From the NCBI GenBank assembly GCA_910578255.1, contig CAJTQM010000001.1, positions 27,488 to 91,487 on the forward strand: a stretch of 64,000 nucleotides of DNA. Direction: 5' to 3'. The notes under the pieces were generated by a model. That model was not told the DNA's origin and did no database searches. It saw only the letters and a program-made list of their open reading frames with translations. Position numbers and translations under genes: made by a program. Source of the stretch: an uncultured Oscillospiraceae bacterium. Its GTDB lineage: Bacteria; Bacillota; Clostridia; Oscillospirales; Ruminococcaceae. Shown piece by piece: positions 5,846 through 56,516 of the stretch; position 1 is the first letter of the stretch, and each line of letters starts with the position of its first letter.

Positions 5846-5860
5846 AAAAACATAAAATGA

Positions 5861-5895
5861 AACCAGCCGTCTTTTTGGGGCGGCTGGTTTTTTTG
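5861..5895. terminator. Terminator between convergent genes
   Basis: AACCAGCCG ... CGGCTGGTT stem followed by TTTTTTT. Confidence 0.7.
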
Positions 5896-5934
5896 TGGAC
5901 AAAAAAGCCTTTTTGGCAAAACAAAGGAACGAGG

Positions 5935-6267
5935 CTATCCCCTCAGATTTTTTAAAGCGTCGGGATGATTTGAGAAAATCGTTTCGACCGTCCGGCATTT
6001 TTTAAGATCCGGACAGCTGCCGCAGCTTGCCACAGCCTTTTTTAACGCGCACCGGCGAATTTCACAAAGATGGTCGCAATACACCGTTTTAACCCCACCG
6101 GTACGGCATCCTTCGCAGTTGATATGTTCGGGCAGGATCGGCGCGTTGTTTAACGCGGCCCATTGCTTGGCGGTTTTCTCACGCAGCGCCTGGTCGTTGT
6201 TGACGGTTGCAAGATATGCGTCACATTTTTCGCAGTCCAGTCCGCAATAACCGATCATATCCTTCAT
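5935..6267 (-). CDS. DUF3795 domain Cys-rich protein
   Basis: 110 aa with GLDCEKCDAY, CEGCR and CGSCPDLKKC cysteine clusters typical of DUF3795. It starts 4 nt after the WYL regulator stop, so the two are probably one operon. Confidence 0.65.
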   Translation of the reverse strand: MKDMIGYCGLDCEKCDAYLATVNNDQALREKTAKQWAALNNAPILPEHINCEGCRTGGVKTVYCDHLCEIRRCALKKAVASCGSCPDLKKCRTVETIFSNHPDALKNLRG

Positions 6268-6271
6268 GGTT

Positions 6272-7288
6272 TTATACCCCCTTAAAAAATCCGATTGGGT
6301 TGTCGGGCTGATTGTAAAGCGGCAGCGCTTTTTGCAGCTGTTTTTCCATGCCGCGCACCGCCGTTTCCGGCGACAGGATCCGCACCCCGTCTCCCAGAGC
6401 GAAAATCCACCCGTAAAATTGGGGGCTCAGCACCACCCGGGTATAGATTTCGAAGGTTTCGTCCTCTTTGGGAAAAACGGTGACATCCTTGCCGAATCGG
6501 TCCATCGCTACGCCGATGAGCCGGTTTTGAAAGCGCAGCTGGACCAGTTCTTCCTCTCCGCCGAACATGGAAAAAACCTTGCGGGTGTAATCGGCCGTAT
6601 CCAGCTGCCGAAACTGCTCGCCGCCTTCCCGGGGAAGCGCCAGAAGGGAGATATCGCTCATTTTGTCTACCCGGTAATGCTTTAAAATGCCCGCCTGAGA
6701 ATCAAAACCCAGCATATAGTAGTTTTCGTCTTCCCAGGCCAGGGCAAAGGGGCTGATCCGGTATTGGGCTCCGTCGTGCCGGAAGCGGCGCTTTTTTTCT
6801 ACGGTGTATTCAAAATAGCGAAAGCCGATCTGCCGGTTTTGGCCGATTGCCGCGTGAATCTGGTCGATGTTGTAATAAACGCTTTCGTTCATTGTCTTGA
6901 CCCGTCCTGCCACGAAAACCTGACGCTGCAGCTGCTGCGCCTGGTAGACGCTGGTGAGGCTTTCCAGCTTTTTTATTAACTCCATAGATTTTTTGTAGGT
7001 GATAAATTTCGACGCCTGCACACTGTCCACCAAAAGCTTCAACTCCGCCAGCTGGAACAGGCGGTTTGGCACATGGTAGCCTTTGCCTCTGACAAACTCC
7101 ACGTCCAGCCCCATTTGGCGAAGATGGGCCAGATCGTTATAAAGGCTTTTTCGTTCGCCGTCCAGCCCCTGCTGGGCCAGCAGCTGGGAAAGCTGGACCT
7201 GGCTGAGGTAGTGGTTTTCGTCGGTCTGTTTCAGCAAAAGCTGCGCCAGGTAGAGAATCCTTCTTTTCTGGTTGGACGATTTTGGCAT
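6272..7288 (-). CDS. HTH plus WYL domain transcriptional regulator
   Basis: 338 aa with an N-terminal winged HTH (RRILYLAQLLLKQTDENHYLSQVQLSQLL) and a central WYL-type region (YYMLGFD, HYRVDKM). Confidence 0.75.
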   Translation of the reverse strand: MPKSSNQKRRILYLAQLLLKQTDENHYLSQVQLSQLLAQQGLDGERKSLYNDLAHLRQMGLDVEFVRGKGYHVPNRLFQLAELKLLVDSVQASKFITYKKSMELIKKLESLTSVYQAQQLQRQVFVAGRVKTMNESVYYNIDQIHAAIGQNRQIGFRYFEYTVEKKRRFRHDGAQYRISPFALAWEDENYYMLGFDSQAGILKHYRVDKMSDISLLALPREGGEQFRQLDTADYTRKVFSMFGGEEELVQLRFQNRLIGVAMDRFGKDVTVFPKEDETFEIYTRVVLSPQFYGWIFALGDGVRILSPETAVRGMEKQLQKALPLYNQPDNPIGFFKGV

Positions 7289-7321
7289 TCGGGCGCCTTC
7301 CTTCTTTTTGTTGTACCGGAT

Positions 7322-8257
7322 TTACCGGTTTTTGCCGCTTTCTTTTTTTGCGGCCAACCTTTCCCGTACCCGCTTTAACATCTCGTCATACCGCTCGGAC
7401 CGGGCGTTGGGGAAAGCCTTGAGCAGACGAACCGGCATTTTTTCCTGCATGATTTTTTCGTATTCCAAAGAAAGCTGGGACAGCCGGGCTTTCTTCTCTT
7501 CGAGCGACTCGAAAAGGGCCTGTTTTCTCTGTTCGGCGTTTTGGACAAGTTCCTCCCCTTTGCTCTCAAGCCGGTCGCGCAACGCTTCCCGCCGCTGCTG
7601 GGCCTGCTCCTTCCACTGGGCGGAGGATTCCTTCACCTTTTCGCCGGTCTGGGCCAGCTTTAAGGCGCTTTGAGCCAGGCCGCCGCCGATCTCCTCCGAA
7701 AGCTGGAACATTAAGCCGCTGACCTCATCCAGCCTTTTCAGGCGGCGGTTCAGCTTCAGGATATTGGCTACCGTCACATAGAAATCGCACGCGAAGCACA
7801 AAAGGCAGACGCCGACCACAATCTCCCCGGCCAGAAGCGGGATCCAGCGGACAAACCGCACAATCGGCGGATGGATCAGATCCATCACCAGCACGCAGCC
7901 AAAGCCCCAGAGAATGGAAAAACGCAGGCAGATGTAGCCGCCCAGATTAAACGGCTGGTCGGAATAGTCCCACCAGCTGGTGTGAAACACTTTTTTGAGT
8001 ATGTATCCGGTGATCCCCTCCAGCACGCTGGTTAAAATCATCGATCCCACAAACAGAAAAAACCAGTTTTCCTGAAGGGGGGTTAGGCAAAACACGACGA
8101 TCACCATACCAAAACCATAGATGGGGCAGACCGGACCTTTTAAAAATCCCCGGTTGACAAAATGGCCGGTGCTAAGGGTGTTAAAGATTACCTCGGCGCA
8201 CCAGCCCAAAAAGGCGTAGATGACAAAAAACGCCAGATATTCGTAAAAAGAATACAT
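7322..8257 (-). CDS. Putative ABC-transporter type IV (PF06541-like) membrane protein with a C-terminal coiled coil
   Basis: The N-terminus FFVIYAFLGWCAEVIF...GPVCPIYGFG is typical of PF06541. The C-terminal ~130 aa are charged heptad-like sequence. Confidence 0.6.
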   Translation of the reverse strand: MYSFYEYLAFFVIYAFLGWCAEVIFNTLSTGHFVNRGFLKGPVCPIYGFGMVIVVFCLTPLQENWFFLFVGSMILTSVLEGITGYILKKVFHTSWWDYSDQPFNLGGYICLRFSILWGFGCVLVMDLIHPPIVRFVRWIPLLAGEIVVGVCLLCFACDFYVTVANILKLNRRLKRLDEVSGLMFQLSEEIGGGLAQSALKLAQTGEKVKESSAQWKEQAQQRREALRDRLESKGEELVQNAEQRKQALFESLEEKKARLSQLSLEYEKIMQEKMPVRLLKAFPNARSERYDEMLKRVRERLAAKKESGKNR

Positions 8258-8362
8258 AAAACTCCCTCTTTTTTATGGAATGCCCTTATTATAATGCACA
8301 TTTAAAAGGACTGCAAGGGCTTTTGGCAGAAGGCAAAAAATGATCTCCGCCAGCCGGGGAAG

Positions 8363-8407
8363 AAACAGGCGGCACGGATCCAAAATGGTCCGCGCCGCCT
8401 GTTTTTG
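8363..8407. terminator. Long hairpin downstream of the ECF S-component gene
   Basis: AAACAGGCGGCACGGA ... TCCGCGCCGCCTGTTT stem. Confidence 0.5.
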
Positions 8408-8444
8408 TTGCTGTTACAGCATTTTTACCATGCGAAAAAGTCCG

Positions 8445-8978
8445 TTATTTTTGGGGGATCAGCTTGGCTTTTTGCAGTACGATCACCACAACCGGAACCA
8501 GCACCAGCTGCAAAATAATGCCGGGGATGGCGCTTAACACGGCGCCGGATAAAAAGGCCGCCCAGGTAAAGGCACCGCCGTTTACGCCAAGGCAGATCAT
8601 CATGGCGATTCCCCAGACAACGCGGCCGCCGATCATGGCGATCAGCAGGTCGGCGTAAAGGAAAAGCGGCTTTTTCGGCAGCTTTTTGTAGCAGATACCG
8701 GTAATCGCGCCGTAGGCCGCCAACTCAAAGGCCATGGCCACCGCGGTGGGGAAAATCGGGGGCATCCCCAATGTCAGAGAGCGAAGCAGCGGCGCTACCA
8801 ATCCCACACTCAGGCCGTAGGGCCATCCGCAGACAAAGCCGCACAGCAGCACCGGCAGATGCATCGGCAAAAGCATGCTGCCGATCTCCGGGATCTGGCC
8901 GGTCAAAAAGGGCAAAAGATAGCAAAGGGCCAGAAACAGCGCTGCCAGAATCATTTTTTTGGTGGACTGATTTTTCAT
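8445..8978 (-). CDS. ECF transporter S component (substrate unknown)
   Basis: Start moved to the ATG at 8978, which follows AGGAGGG. The ~177-aa six-TM protein has a PMHLPVLLCGF..GP..G..VG motif typical of PF12822 S components. Confidence 0.7.
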   Translation of the reverse strand: MKNQSTKKMILAALFLALCYLLPFLTGQIPEIGSMLLPMHLPVLLCGFVCGWPYGLSVGLVAPLLRSLTLGMPPIFPTAVAMAFELAAYGAITGICYKKLPKKPLFLYADLLIAMIGGRVVWGIAMMICLGVNGGAFTWAAFLSGAVLSAIPGIILQLVLVPVVVIVLQKAKLIPQK

Positions 8979-9082
8979 ATGTACCCTCCTTCTGGAAACG
9001 ACAAAGCAATGGCCGGGATCTGCCCGGCCAGGGTGAAACCGACAAAGAGAAGGGGGAACCGGAAAGGTTCTCCCCAAAGCCA

Positions 9083-9286
9083 TTACGCTTGCTCGGACAG
9101 ATATTCGTTGATTTTTTGGACCAGCTCGTCCACATCCGCGCCGTGAACCGCACAGGCCTCCTCCAGACTCTCCATCGCGGAGGCCGGGCAGCCGACGCAG
9201 TGCATCCCCATTTCAAACAGGAAGCGGGCGGTGTTTTGATCGTTTGCCAGCAAATCGCCGATCAGGGTGTTTTTTGTTACGGTCAT
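9083..9286 (-). CDS. DUF1858 / hybrid-cluster-protein-associated redox disulfide protein
   Basis: 67 aa with MGMHCVGCPAS, the signature CxxC of this small family. Strong RBS AGGAGGAG. Confidence 0.75.
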   Translation of the reverse strand: MTVTKNTLIGDLLANDQNTARFLFEMGMHCVGCPASAMESLEEACAVHGADVDELVQKINEYLSEQA

Positions 9287-9424
9287 CGAAAACTCCTCCT
9301 AACTGATTGATGATAAAATTATACCCGTTTTGCCGCCGTTTAGCAATACCGGCGGTTTTGCCGCTCTTTTCGGGGAGAGAAAGGGCGGACAATACGTTGT
9401 CCTCGCCTTGCCAGACCGGTGGAA

Positions 9425-9502
9425 ATGTGATAGAATAACCACAGAAGCGGCTATTGTACCGAATTTCTGTGGCCGCTTTATGGGTATGGCCGATTCCGCC
9501 AT
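9425..9502 (+). repeat. Structured interspersed repeat, copy 4 (most diverged)
   Basis: ATGTGATAGAATAACCACAGAAGCGGCTATTGTACCGAATTTCTGTGGCCGCTTTATGGGTATGGCCGATTCCGCCAT aligns end to end with copies 1-3. Confidence 0.7.
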
Positions 9503-9671
9503 GAAGGCAAGGCCGTACAGGATATCATAACCCGAAATTTTTTATAAAGGAGAACGAGTGGATGTTAAGAGCATTTGAGTCGGTGATCGCAGCAAACCGG
9601 GAGGCTTATGCGAACTGATTTTTGCAAAACCTCCCATAGAAGATTTTTTTAAATTTCGGGAGGACTTTTTC

Positions 9672-10079
9672 GTGAACCAACCAGCTAAGAAAGAAGACAA
9701 AAGCGATTTTGGAGCAAAGGAGTTTGTCTGCAAGGTGTGCGGCGCGCTTGTCGGCCCCGTTTTTGACGGAGGCCGCCAGCGCAATCATTGTCCGGTATGC
9801 CTGTCCAGCATCCATCTGGACGACTTACCGGGGGACCGGTCGGCTGGTTGCGGCGGCATTATGGACCCGGTGGGCGTATGGGTGCGCAAAAACGGCGAAT
9901 GGGCGATCATCCACCGATGCCGCCGGTGCGGCGTTTTCCATTCCAATCGCGTCGCCGCTGACGACAATCCGTTAAAGCTGATGTCTATCGCGGTAAAACC
10001 GCTGGCCTCTCCGCCTTTTCCAATGGAGCGAATGGAGGAAATGGCAAGAGGAGAACAACTTTTGCCCAAAGAAAAATAG
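9672..10079 (+). CDS. RNHCP domain protein
   Basis: Contains the literal RNHCPVC motif plus further CxxC pairs (CKVCG, CRRCG). GTG start lies 8 nt after GGGAGG. Confidence 0.75.
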   Translation: MNQPAKKEDKSDFGAKEFVCKVCGALVGPVFDGGRQRNHCPVCLSSIHLDDLPGDRSAGCGGIMDPVGVWVRKNGEWAIIHRCRRCGVFHSNRVAADDNPLKLMSIAVKPLASPPFPMERMEEMARGEQLLPKEK

Positions 10080-10094
10080 GAGGGATTTTTCCCC

Positions 10095-10130
10095 AAAAAA
10101 AGCCGGCTATTTTTATAGCCGGCTTTTTTT
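10095..10130. terminator. Bidirectional terminator
   Basis: A7-GCCGGCTAT-TTTT-ATAGCCGGC-T7 between convergent genes. Confidence 0.85.
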
Positions 10131-10161
10131 GTCCTCTATGTATAAGGGTATAAGGGGAAAA

Positions 10162-13887: not shown

Positions 13888-14406
13888 ATGAAAAACCCAG
13901 TTGTAACAATTCAAATGGAAAACGGCAACCAGATGAAGGTGGAATTGTATCCGGAAATTGCGCCGAACACGGTGAAGAATTTTGTCTCCCTTGTAAAAAA
14001 GGGATTCTATGACGGCGTGATCTTCCACCGGGTGATTCCCGGCTTTATGATCCAGGGCGGGGATCCGGAAGGGGTCGGGACCGGCGGTCCCGGCTACAGC
14101 ATCAAAGGAGAGTTTGCGGCCAACGGCTTTCCCAACGATTTAAAGCACACAAAGGGCGTTATTTCCATGGCCCGGTCCTCCCGGCCGGACAGCGCTGGCA
14201 GCCAGTTCTTTATCATGGTGGACGACGCGCCCCATTTAGACGGCAGCTATGCGGCTTTCGGCAAGGTGATTGAGGGCATTGAGGAGGCGGACCGGATCGT
14301 ATCGGTCAAGCGGAATCTCTCGGACAAGCCGCTGGAGGATCAGCGGATGGCCAAGGTGACGGTGGAGACCTTCAGCGAGGAAGTCGGCGAGCCGGACACG
14401 CTGTAG
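13888..14406 (+). CDS. Cyclophilin-type peptidyl-prolyl cis-trans isomerase
   Basis: FHRVIPGFMIQGGDP and GSQFFI...APHLDG are cyclophilin signatures. ATG follows AAAGGAGGA. Confidence 0.9.
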   Translation: MKNPVVTIQMENGNQMKVELYPEIAPNTVKNFVSLVKKGFYDGVIFHRVIPGFMIQGGDPEGVGTGGPGYSIKGEFAANGFPNDLKHTKGVISMARSSRPDSAGSQFFIMVDDAPHLDGSYAAFGKVIEGIEEADRIVSVKRNLSDKPLEDQRMAKVTVETFSEEVGEPDTL

Positions 14407-15443: not shown

Positions 15444-15452
15444 GTTTTTTCG

Positions 15453-15536
15453 ATGGCTCGGTCCTTCCGGTCGGCCGGCACCGGCAGCCAGTTTTCGATC
15501 ATGGTGGGCGACGCGCCCCATTTAGACGGCAGCTAA
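15453..15536 (+). pseudogene. Cyclophilin gene relic (27 codons plus stop) duplicating 14167-14249
   Basis: Translates to MARSFRSAGTGSQFSIMVGDAPHLDGS*, against MARSSRPDSAGSQFFIMVDDAPHLDGSY inside the intact PPIase gene. The last ~37 nt are nearly identical at the DNA level. Confidence 0.8.
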
Positions 15537-17917: not shown

Positions 17918-18706
17918 TTACTGCGCCAAAAGCCGGAGGATGTTTTTGGAAAAGATGGACTCCATTTCCCCGCTGGACAGGCCGGATCTTTCAATCATCG
18001 CCTTTTCCTGCCGAGGATAGCTCCAGGGGCAGTCACTGGCAAAAAGAATCCGGTCGGCGCCGTGCTTTTGGATCAGCCGCTTTAGCTGGGCAGGATCCAT
18101 GGCCCCGGCACAGCAGGCAGTGTCCAGCCAAACAGGCTGCCCCGCCAGATACTCCTCCACCTCGTCCCACAGCCGCATACCGCCCATGTGGGCCAAAATC
18201 AGCTTTACTCCCGGGCAGTCCTCCAAAAGCTGGCGGCAGGCCCGGGGCCGGCAGTGGATGTGATCGGGGGAGAGGGGATCAAAGCCTGCGTGGACGACGA
18301 CGCAAAGCCCCAGGTCCCGGATCTTTCGGAAAATGGGCAGAATTCGGGGTTCGTCCATGTCAAAGCCCTGATAGTCCGGATGCAGCTTAACGCCCCGAAG
18401 CCCCAAACCGGCGATCCGTTCCAGTTCCGGCTCCCAGTCCGGCGCGTCCGGATGGACCGAGCCGAAGGGGATCACCCGCTCTGCGGCGATGGCGGCGCAG
18501 AAATCGTTGATGGATTTTTGCTGGGAGGGCTTGGTGGCAATGCTTAAAAAGACCCCTTTGTCCACCCCCCAGGCATCCATTTTTTTTAGCGTATCGGCCA
18601 GGGTCCCGTCGGTTTGGTTGACATAGCCGGAAATACTTGCCAGATGGGGGATAGCCTTCGGGGCCAGTGCGTCAGGGAAAATATGAATATGAGAATCAAT
18701 CAGCAT
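17918..18706 (-). CDS. Amidohydrolase family (PF04909-type TIM-barrel metal hydrolase)
   Basis: MLIDSHIHIFPD is the metal-binding start. HMGG and a DxPW-like motif occur later (SDCPW). Confidence 0.75.
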   Translation of the reverse strand: MLIDSHIHIFPDALAPKAIPHLASISGYVNQTDGTLADTLKKMDAWGVDKGVFLSIATKPSQQKSINDFCAAIAAERVIPFGSVHPDAPDWEPELERIAGLGLRGVKLHPDYQGFDMDEPRILPIFRKIRDLGLCVVVHAGFDPLSPDHIHCRPRACRQLLEDCPGVKLILAHMGGMRLWDEVEEYLAGQPVWLDTACCAGAMDPAQLKRLIQKHGADRILFASDCPWSYPRQEKAMIERSGLSSGEMESIFSKNILRLLAQ

Positions 18707-18826
18707 AATACAACATCCTTTCCAAACTAGGAGGAATATGGCAGTATTATACTAGCCTTTTTTGCCGCTGGCAAGGGCGGTAGGGGAAAAACGTCCGGCA
18801 TCTTTACACCAGGGCGGTTTTATGCT

Positions 18827-18901
18827 ATGGTAGAATAACGACAGAATCGTTATTCTACTGGATTTCTATGGCCGTCCTACGGACATGGCCAATTCTGCCA
18901 T
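18827..18901 (+). repeat. Structured interspersed repeat, copy 1 of 4
   Basis: ATGGTAGAATAACGACAGAATCGTTATTCTACTGGATTTCTATGGCCGTCCTACGGACATGGCCAATTCTGCCAT. It has terminal inverted repeats, an internal 10-5-10 palindrome and a GGCC-flanked hairpin. Confidence 0.85.
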
Positions 18902-18917
18902 TGGCGGCTTCGCCTCC

Positions 18918-18991
18918 ATGGCAGAATAACGACAGAATCGTTAATCTACAGATTTCTATGGCCGTCCTGGAGACATGGCCCACTATACCAT
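18918..18991 (+). repeat. Structured interspersed repeat, copy 2 of 4 (tandem to copy 1)
   Basis: It differs from copy 1 at about 11 of 75 hand-aligned positions. A 16-nt spacer, TGGCGGCTTCGCCTCC, separates the two. Confidence 0.85.
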
Positions 18992-19029
18992 TATGGGTTT
19001 CGCTTTGCAATGGGAAAGAGGGGACGCAT

Positions 19030-19767
19030 ATGACAAAAAACTTCGCGCACCGGGGATTTTCCGCCGCTTATCCGGAAAATACAATGCTGGCGTTTCAAAA
19101 GGCCGAGGAGGTGGGCTGCGACGGCATTGAGATGGACCTGCACCTGAGCGCCGACGGGGTGCCGGTAATCATCCACGACGAAACGCTGGAACGCACCACC
19201 GGCGAGACCGGCTGGGTGGGGGATACCTCTTTTGCCCAGCTACGCCGGCTGGACGCGTCCTACCGGTTTGCCGGCAAAACCCGGGAAAACCCTATTCCGG
19301 CGCTGGAAGAGGTGCTGGAATGGTGCAAAGAAACCGGCCTGCGGCTGAATCTGGAACTGAAGACCAACGTCCGGGAATATCCGGGCATCGAACAGAAGGC
19401 TGTTGATCTTGTGGCCCGTATGGGGATGGAAGAGCGGGTCATTTTTTCCTCCTTTAACCATTACACGCTGCTGCGGTTAAAAGAAATCGCGCCGTCCATT
19501 CCCTGCGGCGCGCTGGTGGAAAGCTGGATTGTGGGTTTTGGCGAATATCTGCAAGGGTTGGGGCTGGAGTGTGCCCATCCGCTGTACAGCTATCTGACCG
19601 AGGAAAACTTGGCGGATCTAAAAGGGCGCGGGCTTCGGGTCCACACCTGGACGGTGAATCAGCCCGAGCAGATGCGCTGGTTGATCCGGTTGGGCGCCGA
19701 TATTTTAATCACCAACCATCCGGACGTGCTGGCAAAGATTTTGCAAAAAGAAGAAGCCTGCCGGTGA
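19030..19767 (+). CDS. Glycerophosphodiester phosphodiesterase
   Basis: The internal ATG at 19030 gives MTKNFAHRGFSAAYPENT...IEMDLHLSADGVPVIIHDETL, the GDPD HR..E.D.H signature. Confidence 0.85.
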   Translation: MTKNFAHRGFSAAYPENTMLAFQKAEEVGCDGIEMDLHLSADGVPVIIHDETLERTTGETGWVGDTSFAQLRRLDASYRFAGKTRENPIPALEEVLEWCKETGLRLNLELKTNVREYPGIEQKAVDLVARMGMEERVIFSSFNHYTLLRLKEIAPSIPCGALVESWIVGFGEYLQGLGLECAHPLYSYLTEENLADLKGRGLRVHTWTVNQPEQMRWLIRLGADILITNHPDVLAKILQKEEACR

Positions 19768-40677: not shown

Positions 40678-41817
40678 ATGCTTTTGTGTGTAAAAAACGC
40701 GGATGTCTACAGTCCCGCTCCGTTGGGCAGAAACGATATCCTCATCTGCAACGACAGAATTCTTGCCATCCAGCCGGATATCGACGGTCTGCCCCAAAAC
40801 TGCCGGATCATCGACGCCGCCGGCCACCGGGTGATTCCGGGCTTAATTGACCAGCATGTGCACATTACCGGAGGCGGCGGGGAAAGCGGCTTTACCAGCC
40901 GGGTGCCGGAACTTCGCTTCTCCGACAGCGTCAGGGCCGGGGTCACTACCCTGGTGGGCCTTTTGGGCACCGACTCACGGACCCGCAGCGTCCAGAACCT
41001 GCTGGCTAAGACCAAGGCACTTAACGAAGAAGGGATCACCGCCTACTGCCTGACCGGCGCGTATGAAATTCCGTCGCCCACCCTCACCGGCTCGGTAGGG
41101 GACGATATTATGTTTTTACAGGAGGTCATCGGCGTAAAGGTGGCCATCTCCGACCACCGCAGTTCGAACCTCACCAAGGAGGAGATGATCAAGCTGGCCA
41201 GCGAGGCCCGAATCGCCGGCCTTTTGAGCAAAAAGCCCGGCGTGGTTCATATGCACACCGGCTCAGGCCGCCAGGGCCTTGGGATGATTTTGGATATTGT
41301 AAAAACCACCGACATCCCCATTAAACACTTCCGCCCCACCCATATGCGAAAGATGCTGGAGGACGACGTGGTGGAATTCGCCGGCTTAGGCGGGTATGTG
41401 GATTATACCAGCAGCGAGGAGCCGGACGAAAAGTCCCAGGAGATTTTGGATGTGCTGGCCCGGGGAATCCCCGAGGACCATCTGACCATCAGTTCCGACT
41501 CTAACGGCAGTATGCCCAAATGGGGTCCCAACCGGGAACTGATCGGCATCACCTATGCCAAAATGACCAGCCTGTTCGGCCAGATCCGCTCGCTGGTACA
41601 GGTCAAGGGACTGCCGCTGGAGCGAGCGCTGTGCTTTGTGACCCAAAACGTGGCTCAGGCTCTGGAAATCTACCCCCGCAAGGGCTGCTTGGCGCCGGAC
41701 AGTGACGCGGACCTGGTGATCCTTGGCCCCCAAATGGAGATCGAAACGGTGCTGGCCAAAGGGCAGGTGCTGATGGAAGAGGGAAAAGTTTTAAAAAAAG
41801 GACTGTTTGAGGATTAG
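40678..41817 (+). CDS. iadA: Isoaspartyl dipeptidase (beta-aspartyl peptidase)
   Basis: GLIDQHVHITGGGGE is the IadA-specific HxH-GGGGE motif. The 379-aa product has an amidohydrolase fold. Confidence 0.85.
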   Translation: MLLCVKNADVYSPAPLGRNDILICNDRILAIQPDIDGLPQNCRIIDAAGHRVIPGLIDQHVHITGGGGESGFTSRVPELRFSDSVRAGVTTLVGLLGTDSRTRSVQNLLAKTKALNEEGITAYCLTGAYEIPSPTLTGSVGDDIMFLQEVIGVKVAISDHRSSNLTKEEMIKLASEARIAGLLSKKPGVVHMHTGSGRQGLGMILDIVKTTDIPIKHFRPTHMRKMLEDDVVEFAGLGGYVDYTSSEEPDEKSQEILDVLARGIPEDHLTISSDSNGSMPKWGPNRELIGITYAKMTSLFGQIRSLVQVKGLPLERALCFVTQNVAQALEIYPRKGCLAPDSDADLVILGPQMEIETVLAKGQVLMEEGKVLKKGLFED

Positions 41818-56420: not shown

Positions 56421-56450
56421 TTGAGATTCCCTATAAGGTTATGGTATAAT
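56421..56450 (+). promoter_or_regulatory. Promoter TTGAGA-18-TGgTATAAT whose -10 is the left end of repeat copy 3
   Basis: The extended -10 is perfect. It lies downstream of the rnj terminator and upstream of gdpP. Confidence 0.5.
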
Positions 56451-56516
56451 AACAACAAGATCGTTATTATACCCGGATTTTCATGGCCGCCCTATGGGCA
56501 TGGCCAATTATACCAT
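56441..56516 (+). repeat. Structured interspersed repeat, copy 3 of 4
   Basis: ATGGTATAATAACAACAAGATCGTTATTATACCCGGATTTTCATGGCCGCCCTATGGGCATGGCCAATTATACCAT. It differs from copy 1 at about 14 positions, several of them compensatory. Confidence 0.85.

Follow-up and report, generated by a model that had tools for sequence, protein, structure and literature searches.

A probable family of small mobile promoter elements that begins at −10 boxes in an Oscillospiraceae group

Correia elements of Neisseria (CREE/NEMIS) end in inverted repeats of 26 bp, carry an IHF site, duplicate a TA target and insert in either orientation. BOX elements are not known to be anchored on a −10 box or to be uniformly oriented toward the downstream gene. 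Correia, ERIC and REPIN elements and the "putative mobile promoters" are precedents for the repeat described here (PMC3575422, PMC10969869). Putative mobile promoters, a descriptive category, were defined by stretches of 50 nt or more that are 80% or more identical and lie upstream of non-homologous genes of one genome (Matus-Garcia, Nijveen and van Passel, 2012), and were sampled from −150 to −50, mostly without the −10 box (PMC3575422). SPRITE elements are terminator-like (PMC10969869), and the left end of IS200 contains a terminator hairpin at nt 12–34, tnpA starting near nt 40 (PMC4513863).

We analysed a 64,000-nt stretch of Oscillospiraceae DNA (the window) and a set of related loci. The window contains four copies of an intergenic repeat, all on the + strand, at 18827–18901, 18917–18991, 9425–9502 and 56441–56516, as the earlier note had described, and the differences that it had counted by hand are exact (copy 1 versus copy 2, 11/75; versus the 56441 copy, 14/76); copy 1 and the 9425 copy differ at 21/76 positions. 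A chance origin of the four copies is excluded. An 18-nt core pattern had 3 matches in the window against 0.2 expected, a number reached by 0/100 shuffles, and a covariance model run over the 64 kb with filters off retrieved only the four copies, with E = 4e-19 (first unit of the tandem pair), 2e-12 (56441 copy), 7e-9 (9425 copy) and 3e-4 (second unit of the pair), the remaining matches (E > 0.07) being reverse-strand echoes of the palindrome. The repeats do not look like a riboswitch, but like a new family of small mobile promoter elements.

The three structural elements previously noticed in each copy (terminal inverted repeats, a palindrome and a GGCC-closed hairpin) are found in the window copies. 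The palindrome, described as 10-5-10, is present and has a true length of 13–14 bp, and the 75-nt unit is incomplete: the true period is 90 nt, and the unit goes on over a small GC-rich hairpin tip and enters the 5′ box that follows. Each unit has four parts: hairpin A, a U-rich linker, hairpin B and hairpin C. Hairpin A pairs a box of 13 nt (ATGGTATAATAAC), readable as an extended −10, with an inverted copy of that box, its 5′ arm being the extended −10 box (TGGTATAAT); hairpin B is GC-rich and highly conserved; and hairpin C pairs the 3′ box, a second inverted copy of the box, with the 5′ box of the next unit across a small GC-rich tip. Subterminal hairpins (A and C, each backed by covariation) are present on the same strand at both ends, and, although inverted box copies exist, the units repeat head to tail, in arrays of 1–3 units followed by a partial unit. 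A motif TGnTAKAAT had been read at the left end of all copies; it is present in three of the four, copy 2 having TGGCAGAAT.

Pairing is maintained across the family, with 91% of 1466 pair cells paired, versus 30–42% in slid controls, and double changes in 20 pairs, a count reached by 0/500 shuffles; the compensatory changes previously noted between copies are real. Hairpin B is 99.4% paired, GCCC/GGGC being replaced by GGCC/GGCC, ACCT/AGGT or GTCC/GGAC, and hairpin C covaries, for example at column pair 74:110 (UA 20, GC 14). The terminal inverted repeats turned out to be the weaker pairing: unpaired cells amount to 14/42 when the 3′ box is paired with its own 5′ box (column pair 12:74) and to 6/42 when it is paired with the next one (74:110). 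Since the 3′ box favours the next box over its own, hairpin C is preferred to the closing stem formed by terminal inverted repeats, and the comparative data agree better with a 90-nt unit that includes hairpin C than with a 75-nt unit. The G–U pairs cited earlier as a sign of RNA-level pairing are indeed required by the stem of the 9425 copy (GCUU/GGGU), but the argument fails across the family. In hairpin A, mispairs are A·C in 25 cases and G·U in 6, mostly at helix ends, and in hairpin B G·U in 5 and A·C in 2; the count is not decisive as a test of strand or RNA. A hand tally of conservation in the box halves (5′, 3′) gave 0.79 and 0.89 for first boxes and about 0.87 and 0.75 for last boxes, a weak trend that we do not rely on.

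The tandem pair lies at the gene of glycerophosphodiester phosphodiesterase (GDPD), whose native promoter (18803..18831, +; promoter scan) is kept in relatives and consists of a −35 TTTACA, a 17-nt spacer and the extended −10 TGcTATGGT, the element beginning directly 3′ of ..ATGGT. Unit 1 (18827..18917, +; 109 bits with the covariance model) is composed of the box ATGGTAGAATAAC (18827–18839), hairpin A (18829–18841 pairing with 18847–18859), the U-rich linker GGATTTCTAT (18860–18869), hairpin B GGCCGTCC-TAC-GGAC-AT-GGCC (18870–18890), the 3′ box AATTCTGCCAT (18891–18901) and the GC-rich tip TGGCGGCTTCGCCTCC (18902–18917), all on the + strand; its hairpin A and T-rich tail were flagged as terminator-like by the terminator scan. 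Hairpin C (18891..18927, +), supported by covariation and MFE folds, comprises the 3′ box and tip of unit 1 and the 5′ box of unit 2 (ATTCTGCCAT / ATGGCAGAAT). Unit 2 (18918..19013, +) is partly decayed, with a box ATGGCAGAATAAC, a hairpin A with one mismatch, a linker, a hairpin B whose inner stem is broken (GTCC/GAGA), the 3′ box CACTATACCAT (18981–18991) and a degenerate tail ending in ..CAATGG (18992–19013). The remnant of the native GDPD leader, the ribosome-binding site and the ATG follow (GAAAGAGGGGACGCAT-ATG; 19014..19032, +), and this stretch is homologous to the sequence found right after the −10 box in element-free relatives. In four of these (L057, L058, L037 and L059), TTTACA-17-TATGGT is conserved and the site is a bare TTTACA-17-TGcTATGGT|G.. 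promoter where the window has two units; in L035 there is a 55–66-nt remnant with ATGGT on both flanks. The insertion can be written as empty TGcTATGGT|G.. becoming ATGGT|element..ATGGT|, and this is the sole site with an unambiguous left junction. No locus-specific target duplication was seen, the only flanking direct repeat being the conserved ATGGT/box itself, at the GDPD site.

The copy upstream of a uORF and the RNHCP gene is an old, decayed single unit (9427..9531, +) whose hairpin A is mostly gone, and in which we recognized the linker (9461–9470), a hairpin B with three G·U pairs (9471–9491), the 3′ box (9492–9502), the tip (9503–9518) and a right-hand partial box AGGATATCATAAC (9519–9531), all on the + strand. 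Its promoter (9408..9436, +; promoter scan) has a −35 TTGCCA, 17 nt and TGa-TAGAAT, of which the −35, the spacer and TGTGA are native; the element comes after them. Empty orthologous promoters have TTGCCA-17-TGgTAAAGT (L073) and TTGTCA-17-TGaTAGAGT (L068), and L070, like the window, is occupied. Of seven conspecific strains, 6 have an identical copy and the seventh differs by 1 SNP; a relative at 84% amino-acid identity also has the copy, in a decayed state. Since no presence/absence polymorphism was found at this locus among the seven conspecific contigs, and the window's own copies are mutually only 66% alike, the element seems old and inactive in the window genome.

Between rnj (RNase J) and gdpP there is a single unit (56441..56516, +), with hairpin A (56443–56456 / 56460–56473), a linker, hairpin B (56485–56505) and the 3′ box (56506–56516), all on the + strand; hairpin C and a right-hand box are not recognisable. 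The gdpP promoter (56421..56450, +; 11/12 matches with TG in the promoter scan) is formed by a −35 TTGAGA, 18 nt and TGG-TATAAT, the 5′ box of the element being its −10, and relatives at 90% amino-acid identity keep TTGAGA-18-TATAATAA and differ in their leaders. At polA the site is empty in L076 (TGTGGTATAAT) and L078 (TGTGCTATAAT) and occupied in L023, L074 and L009. Occupancy is seen in genomes only 64% identical and is lacking in closer ones, a patchiness that requires repeated insertion or repeated loss. The junctions at RNHCP, polA and gdpP are compatible with insertion 3′ of a specific short sequence, but they are ambiguous, because the native −10 and the element box are alike and the exact junction cannot be fixed. 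In sum, at the orthologous promoters of GDPD, RNHCP and polA some related species have the element and others lack it, and the bare promoters have a −10 box where the box of the element sits in occupied genomes.

Promoter scanning predicted sigma-70 matches with TG at all three window loci. Across the family, TGn is present in 26/32 first units, and TTG occurs 16–18 nt upstream of the −10 of the first unit, in unique DNA, in 13/32 arrays, compared with 4.5% of control positions (p = 5e-10). The left end of the element always coincides with the −10 of a pre-existing predicted sigma-70 promoter, and the element faces the gene that lies downstream. For hairpin A the free energy is −14 to −21 kcal/mol, and 5–7 U come within the next 10 nt in most units; AUUUnUAU begins 2–3 nt after it, the U-tract is interrupted and the base of the stem is AU-rich. 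The terminator scan flagged copy 1 only, and a crude count of our own flagged 21/62 boxes. In MFE folds of RNA beginning at the predicted start, hairpins B and C form and the next hairpin A is absent, and in folds of read-through RNA hairpin A forms. The terminator, promoter and antiterminator roles considered below are predictions from sequence and from these folds.

An exact-pattern scan over one genome per species identified 34 loci, of which 32 belong to Oscillospiraceae MAGs and 2 are chance matches, and profile and covariance-model searches recovered about 60 units, which come from no fewer than 7 genomes of Oscillospiraceae (Provencibacterium, Angelakisella, Fimivivens and other MAGs), with at least 17 loci in one MAG. 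Several contigs break off within an array. In at least 30/34 arrays the gene downstream has the same orientation as the element (p = 6e-6), with a ribosome-binding site and start codon 27–300 nt beyond the array; the upstream gene is divergent in 17/29 arrays and no array beside a convergent gene was confirmed. Replication strand was rejected as the main cause of this orientation: at L004 two opposed arrays, 900 nt apart, each face their own gene, and neighbouring coding DNA is co-oriented with the element at a mean of only 53%. GC skew, a noisy measure here, is positive at 24/33 loci. The downstream genes are unrelated and can be described as housekeeping (recJ, lepA, polA, recX, deoD, gcvT, ilvB, rluD, a PBP1 gene, tex, rpsU, gdpP and the GDPD gene).

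Units in the same array are 92% identical, units at different loci of a genome 81% (Provencibacterium ABMPRH_177_1, 92%; Fimivivens, 98%) and units of different genomes 72%; the element has multiplied within genomes and has grown locally into direct arrays. Units of one array have common, array-specific hairpin-A tops, which disfavours an origin of arrays by repeated independent insertion. Within one genome these tops include CAC/GTG, TAC/GTA, CGC/GCG and TGC/GCA, all perfectly paired, and so many perfectly paired tops per genome could also mean selection for a function, locus by locus, and not for mobility. We also observed unrelated non-coding repeat families, the AACCTCAC family and the L031 family, that start at the same box.

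Probably, these repeats constitute a previously undescribed, non-autonomous MITE/REP/BOX-like family, found in one Oscillospiraceae group, whose members insert into the −10 boxes of promoters and rebuild them. The earlier note had offered a REP/MITE-like element, a shared promoter-leader module and a small cis-regulatory RNA without choosing among them, and is partly supported. The first two options hold jointly: the repeat is interspersed, homogenised by lineage and present or absent at orthologous sites, and its left end lies on the −10 box, with the −35 in unique flanking DNA and an orientation that follows the downstream gene. A gene-specific form of the third is unlikely, given that the genes downstream have no relation to one another, that copy number is variable and that the element is absent from close relatives. 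As the earlier note held, the repeat corresponds to no known RNA family or IS end: nothing was found in Rfam, nor an IS match in plasmid, phage and viral collections. Orientation is non-random and covariation is present, so that neither of the observations named in the note as contrary to its view was made.

According to this reading, the element would insert in or just after a −10 hexamer (TGnT|ATAAT, or the look-alike ATGGT|). We suppose that what inserts is a circularly permuted 90-nt period, by which a TGGTATAAT-type box would be regenerated at both junctions. The native −35 would stay with the left box and the native leader with the right box; the gene would therefore still be expressed, and only co-oriented promoter insertions would survive. 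Hairpin A and the U-rich linker may approximate an intrinsic terminator that stops upstream read-through, and transcripts starting from the −10 in the 5′ arm of hairpin A would not have that arm and would escape termination; with the next box sequestered by hairpin C, such transcripts would pass later units too. Each unit may in this way act as a terminator-plus-promoter ("insulator") module, by analogy with the IS200 left end. The subterminal hairpins, the strand specificity and the lack of a conventional target duplication suggest mobilisation by a single-strand (HUH-type) or site-specific recombination mechanism.

Like Correia elements, the present element is small (about 100–150 bp), non-coding, multi-copy, capable of forming stable hairpins when transcribed, placed mostly just upstream of genes, and carries or creates sigma-70 promoters, here predicted ones, for the neighbouring gene (PMC10969869, PMC3575422). 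Unlike them, it has no TA duplication, forms direct 90-nt arrays, is anchored on a native −10 and is oriented with the gene in at least 30/34 arrays. With the Streptococcus pneumoniae elements BOX (boxA-boxB(n)-boxC) and SPRITE it has in common a hairpin-rich, intergenic nature, a modular build with a variable number of direct internal modules and a co-transcription with neighbouring genes that is here predicted (PMC10969869), whereas a relation in sequence is not expected. Hairpin B, a 21-nt GC-rich imperfect palindrome with a bulge, is REP-like as in REP/BIME/REPIN, and homogenisation within genomes with a lineage-specific consensus is also seen in REPIN populations (PMC3575422). Nevertheless, the element differs from REP/REPIN in that hairpin B is preceded by ATTTnTAT and not by a GTAG-type 5′ tetranucleotide, in that pairs are direct and not inverted, and in that it is located 5′, at promoters, and not 3′ of genes.

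Subterminal hairpins on one strand are also found in PATEs, the non-autonomous derivatives of IS200/IS605, and at the left end of IS200/IS605, where that of IS200 is a terminator against incoming transcription and a transcript starts shortly after it (PMC4513863), and insertion 3′ of a short specific sequence without conventional duplication is likewise suggested here at one site (..ATGGT|, GDPD). However, the presumed joining site is inside the hairpin stems and not outside, orientation follows the neighbouring gene and not one replication strand, a 90-nt tandem period is atypical, and a tblastn search for the Y1 transposase TnpA of IS200 had no match in 620 kb, a small fraction of the host genomes. 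Nor did a RAYT gene come to light in the DNA sampled, and no match to the element was found in plasmids and phages by sensitive blastn (11-base words) or in viral contigs by pattern scan. By the definition of putative mobile promoters, copy 1 and the 56441 copy (62/76 positions identical) and the loci of Provencibacterium (92%) and Fimivivens (98%) belong to that category, from which the present element is distinguished by having the −10 itself as anchor and a defined structure and empty sites.

A related possibility, which we regard as doubtful, is that the element finds promoters through base pairing or through a site-specific recombination whose core would be the extended −10, and that unrelated cassettes form an integron-like system. 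A single-stranded or circular 90-nt intermediate would align with strong sigma-70 promoters at their −10 region, perhaps while this is melted in the open complex, the internal inverted boxes (3′ arm of hairpin A, 5′ arm of hairpin C) would serve as guides or as a folded double-stranded core, and integration would restore the promoter on both sides. The present family, the AACCTCAC family and the L031 family would then be exchangeable non-coding terminator/promoter/leader cassettes, joined at the common box, at housekeeping promoters.

It is unlikely that the element is instead a conserved cis-regulatory 5′ leader RNA, with switching between hairpins A and C (an attenuator or a protein or ligand switch) responding to one global signal, and with its spread secondary. 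The strong covariation in three hairpins, the invariant hairpin B, the conserved single-stranded linker, the mutually exclusive pairings (A versus C, own box versus next box), the location in the 5′ region of a co-oriented gene and the several perfectly compensated hairpin-A variants in one genome would all suit such an RNA, as would the RNHCP copy, where hairpin B has changed from C to U at positions that still pair only as G·U on the + strand. But no function is common to the downstream genes, arrays range between 1 and 3 copies and have ragged partial units, close relatives have a bare promoter at the same housekeeping genes (polA, GDPD, RNHCP, gdpP), copies are homogenised within genomes, and the expression platform is not conserved, the sequence from the element to the ribosome-binding site being unique per locus. 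Furthermore, transcripts starting at the −10 box, which is the 5′ arm of hairpin A, would lack that arm, and Rfam has no gathering-score match in the whole window or at 8 related loci and none even at E ≤ 10 in 18700–19100. A riboswitch or regulon was rejected, given the unrelated downstream genes and the relatives without the element.

About equally improbable is an origin with no dedicated mobility, by convergent or recombinational copying of a strong TGGTATAAT promoter and its leader through duplication, gene conversion and local slippage. Microhomology-driven events predict a left junction within a stretch common with the native −10, as observed; array-specific hairpin-A tops would reflect local tandem duplication, orthologous polA arrays bear genome-specific signatures, as expected from gene conversion, and other unrelated repeat families begin at the same box. 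Against it, homologies of 5–13 bp are too short for RecA-dependent conversion, conserved right-hand homology is absent, at least 17 loci in one MAG and at least 7 genomes with lineage-specific consensus are a scale usual for a dedicated mechanism, and neutral copying does not explain the compensatory maintenance of the hairpins. Small-RNA genes, single or in tandem sets, in which the box is the promoter, hairpin B and the linker the body and the next hairpin A with its U-tract the terminator of a trans-acting RNA of about 90–115 nt, made in many copies, are very improbable: the commonest array (a full unit and a partial one ending after hairpin A/linker or hairpin B, model positions about 50–70) does read as promoter, body and terminator, every unit has a −10 box, and hairpin B and the linker hardly vary from genus to genus, but MFE folds from the box favour hairpin C without the next hairpin A, so that termination there is not predicted, many arrays (L007, L008, L013, L019 and L030) end in a bare box with no terminator, placement and orientation follow the downstream gene, needlessly for a free-standing gene, individual copies are missing in relatives without replacement, and no known small-RNA family was matched in Rfam.

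If a mobile element landing in −10 boxes is the right explanation, gut Oscillospiraceae, which are abundant and mostly uncultured, carry repeats that rebuild the −10 boxes of housekeeping genes (polA, recJ, lepA, rpsU, gdpP). Annotation would gain, as conserved intergenic structures otherwise mistakable for riboswitch candidates would be explained, and the arrays would be recognized as a practical nuisance, because assemblies break at them. The compact natural terminator-plus-promoter module would be a candidate insulator part, and the question would be raised of which enzyme recognises a promoter-like core. The family would provide a clean natural case of "mobile promoters" with defined insertion sites, and of the turnover of promoters and leaders between closely related species.

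The four copies described in the earlier note (the tandem pair at 18827-18901 and 18917-18991, and the copies at 9425-9502 and 56441-56516) were all found in place and on the + strand, and its hand counts proved exact, the tandem copies differing at 11 of 75 positions and the first of them differing from the copy at 56441 at 14 of 76. An 18-nt core pattern matched three times in the window (0.2 expected), and a covariance model run with filters off returned exactly the four copies in 64 kb (E = 4e-19, 2e-12, 7e-9 and 3e-4), the remaining matches (E > 0.07) all being reverse-strand echoes of the palindrome. Rfam gave no match to the element over the whole window at the gathering score, over the tandem-pair locus at E <= 10, or on eight related loci, and no sequence match was found in plasmids, phages or viral contigs.

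The 75-nt unit initially proposed is truncated, as alignment of relatives gives a 90-nt period. Each unit opens with a box (ATGGTATAATAAC) that, with a variable top and loop and an inverted box (GTTATTATACC), makes up hairpin A; a U-rich linker (GATTTnTAT), the nearly invariant hairpin B (GGCCGCCC-TAC-GGGC-AT-GGCC), a second inverted box (AATgATACCAT) and a small GC-rich tip (e.g. GCGCTTCGCGC or GAAAAC-GCT-GTTTTC) then lead to the next box, and second inverted box, tip and next box form the long hairpin C. Arrays contain one to three full units, then a terminal partial unit, which is a bare box, a box with hairpin A and linker, or a stretch extending through hairpin B. Across 42 full units, pairing holds in 91% of pair cells (30-42% in slid controls), with two-sided changes at 20 pairs, a value attained in 0/500 shuffles. 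Covariation is seen at the top of hairpin A (CG 23, UA 10, GC 5 at one pair; GC 22, AU 16 at the adjacent pair) and between the -10 hexamer and the 3' arm (TATAAT/ATTATA, TATCAT/ATGATA, TAGAAT/ATTCTA, TAAAAT/ATTTTA). The closing stem formerly drawn between terminal inverted repeats (column pair 12:74, 14 unpaired) is weaker than hairpin C (column pair 74:110: UA 20, GC 14, unpaired 6), and G.U versus A.C counts do not separate RNA from DNA.

We also noticed other repeats. A second family begins at the same box (TAATAACCTCAC, with a long imperfect hairpin around AATCAAAGATT, ..GGGAGAAC) in related loci (L011 ~1091(-), L020 (-), L024 64 and 263 (+), L039 2721, L041 2300, L046 2779); it has no Rfam match, comes after family-1 units in three MAGs, and, in relatives of the window organism, sits at the gdpP promoter, which in the window carries a family-1 unit. 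A third box-anchored repeat occurs in Fimivivens (L031 4417-4500 and 4580-4665, two copies 160 nt apart), with three hairpins after ATGGTATAATAACCGCAGGG (GAAAACAGC/GCTGTTTTC, GGCCGCC/GGCGGCC and ATGCCG/CGGCAT), its first copy lying directly 3' of a family-1 unit. In the window, a 92-nt direct repeat (family D3; 14158-14249, in a peptidyl-prolyl isomerase gene region, and 15444-15535; copies 86% identical and separated by 1.3 kb) could represent a gene segment that is duplicated or paralogous.

The next downstream gene is co-oriented in at least 30 of 34 arrays (p = 6e-6), the apparent exceptions being ORF-calling artefacts, with the RBS and start codon 27-300 nt past the array; the upstream gene is divergent in 17/29 cases. 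Since two opposed arrays lying 900 nt apart in one related locus (L004) each face their own gene, orientation tracks the gene and not the replication strand. Downstream are RNHCP, GDPD and gdpP in the window, and unrelated housekeeping genes (recJ, lepA, polA in two genomes, recX, deoD, gcvT, ilvB, rluD, a PBP1 gene, tex, rpsU); we consider it unlikely that the element is a global cis-regulatory leader RNA. A promoter scan predicted a sigma-70 promoter with TG at each of the three window loci (TTTACA-17-TATGGT for GDPD, TTGCCA-17-TAGAAT for RNHCP, TTGAGA-18-TATAAT for gdpP), the -35 hexamers lying outside the repeat, in unique DNA, and 13 of 32 arrays have TTG 16-18 nt 5' of the -10 of their first unit, as do 4.5% of control positions (p = 5e-10). 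Box-like sites are not all occupied, since TGGTAGAAT at window 53603 (-) and TGGTATAAT at 41410 (-) are free. In another related locus, L030, one unit (212-299, -) lies directly 5' of an IS5/IS1182-like transposase N-terminus (MQLKYHMVTIEELVPAEHFLRKLE...), with a perfect TTGACA-17-TGGAAT promoter 8 nt 5' of the unit.

Orthologous sites were found empty and occupied (^ marks the junction). At GDPD, four relatives (84-69% amino-acid identity) have a bare promoter, TTTACA-17-TGcTATGGT^GrAA..GGAAAGAGGGG..ATG, the sister species L035 has ATGGT^AGAATAAC..hairpin A..linker..ATGGT^TAGTGGGGAAAGAGGGG, and the window has two units at the matching point. At RNHCP, the element is present in the window and one relative (L070) and absent from another (L073: TTGCCA-17-TGgTAAAGT, then a 16-nt leader up to the RBS); at polA, it is present in three loci (L023, L074, L009), and two (L076, L078) are empty, with TGTGGTATAAT and TGTGCTATAAT exactly where the box sits; at gdpP, relatives at 90% identity retain TTGAGA-18-TATAATAA with different leaders. 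In every case compared, the native -35 and spacer are kept together with some or all of the -10, and the element starts inside the -10 hexamer or immediately 3' of it; the insert spans whole 90-nt periods and a remainder. Given the likeness of box and native -10, the junction register is certain at GDPD only (after ATGGT).

The RNHCP locus has further features. A synteny break adjoins the copy (window 5853-10159, compared with L035 and L037): L035 is without a 4.3-kb segment (DUF1858, repeat, RNHCP region) at this place, and L037 has an inverted fumarase gene and no RNHCP gene. Between repeat and gene (9562-9671) lies an 18-codon uORF (MLRAFESVIAANREAYAN-stop) whose peptide is conserved in L070, L073 and L068; after it come an anti-SD/SD pair (AACCTCCC ... 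GGGAGG), a T-run and a GTG start at 9672, an arrangement that resembles leader-peptide-coupled translational attenuation of RNHCP.

An exact-pattern search in which each bacterial species was represented by one genome gave 34 loci, 32 of them in Oscillospiraceae MAGs (Provencibacterium, Angelakisella, Fimivivens, others) and at least 17 in a single MAG; contig ends fall inside arrays in several cases. Units are 92% identical within an array, 81% when loci of one genome are compared and 72% across genomes, and stems, linker and tip carry a signature particular to each genome. Hairpin-A tops are array-specific and common to the units of an array; arrays therefore expand by local duplication. The element appears old in the window genome, because its copies are just 66% alike and, at RNHCP, six of seven conspecific strains carry an identical copy, the seventh differs by one SNP, and a decayed form is shared with a relative at 84% amino-acid identity. 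Copying without any dedicated mechanism seems to us improbable.

We hypothesize that insertion at TGnT^ATAAT, or at the look-alike ATGGT^, would rebuild a TGGTATAAT box at each junction, with the native -35 kept by the left one and the native leader by the right one. Such insertions would be harmless, and the terminal partial box would be accounted for; those at other places or reversed would create strong rogue promoters and hence be lost. Hairpin A (-14 to -21 kcal/mol) with the U-rich linker would resemble an intrinsic terminator, and a transcript starting 6-8 nt past the -10 would lack the 5' arm, so that hairpin A could not form. In MFE folds, RNA from the predicted start forms B and C and not the next hairpin A, and read-through RNA forms hairpin A. 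The element may thus combine terminator and promoter in one module, like the one reported at the left end of IS200 (PMC4513863). That the copies are multi-copy small-RNA genes is very improbable.

In how it works, the element resembles small repeats that bear promoters (Correia, ERIC, REPIN, 'putative mobile promoters'; PMC3575422, PMC10969869); it is modular like pneumococcal BOX elements, has a REP-like hairpin B, and recalls IS200/IS605 derivatives in its hairpin ends and apparent lack of target duplication; a search of 620 kb, a small fraction of the host genomes, gave no Y1 transposase. With direct arrays and no variable target duplication, it does not qualify as a classical MITE, and with neither GTAG nor inverted pairs it does not qualify as REP/REPIN. 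The comparisons show a repeat family that sits on promoter -10 boxes, is oriented with the downstream gene, is gained or lost between related species and is homogenised within genomes.
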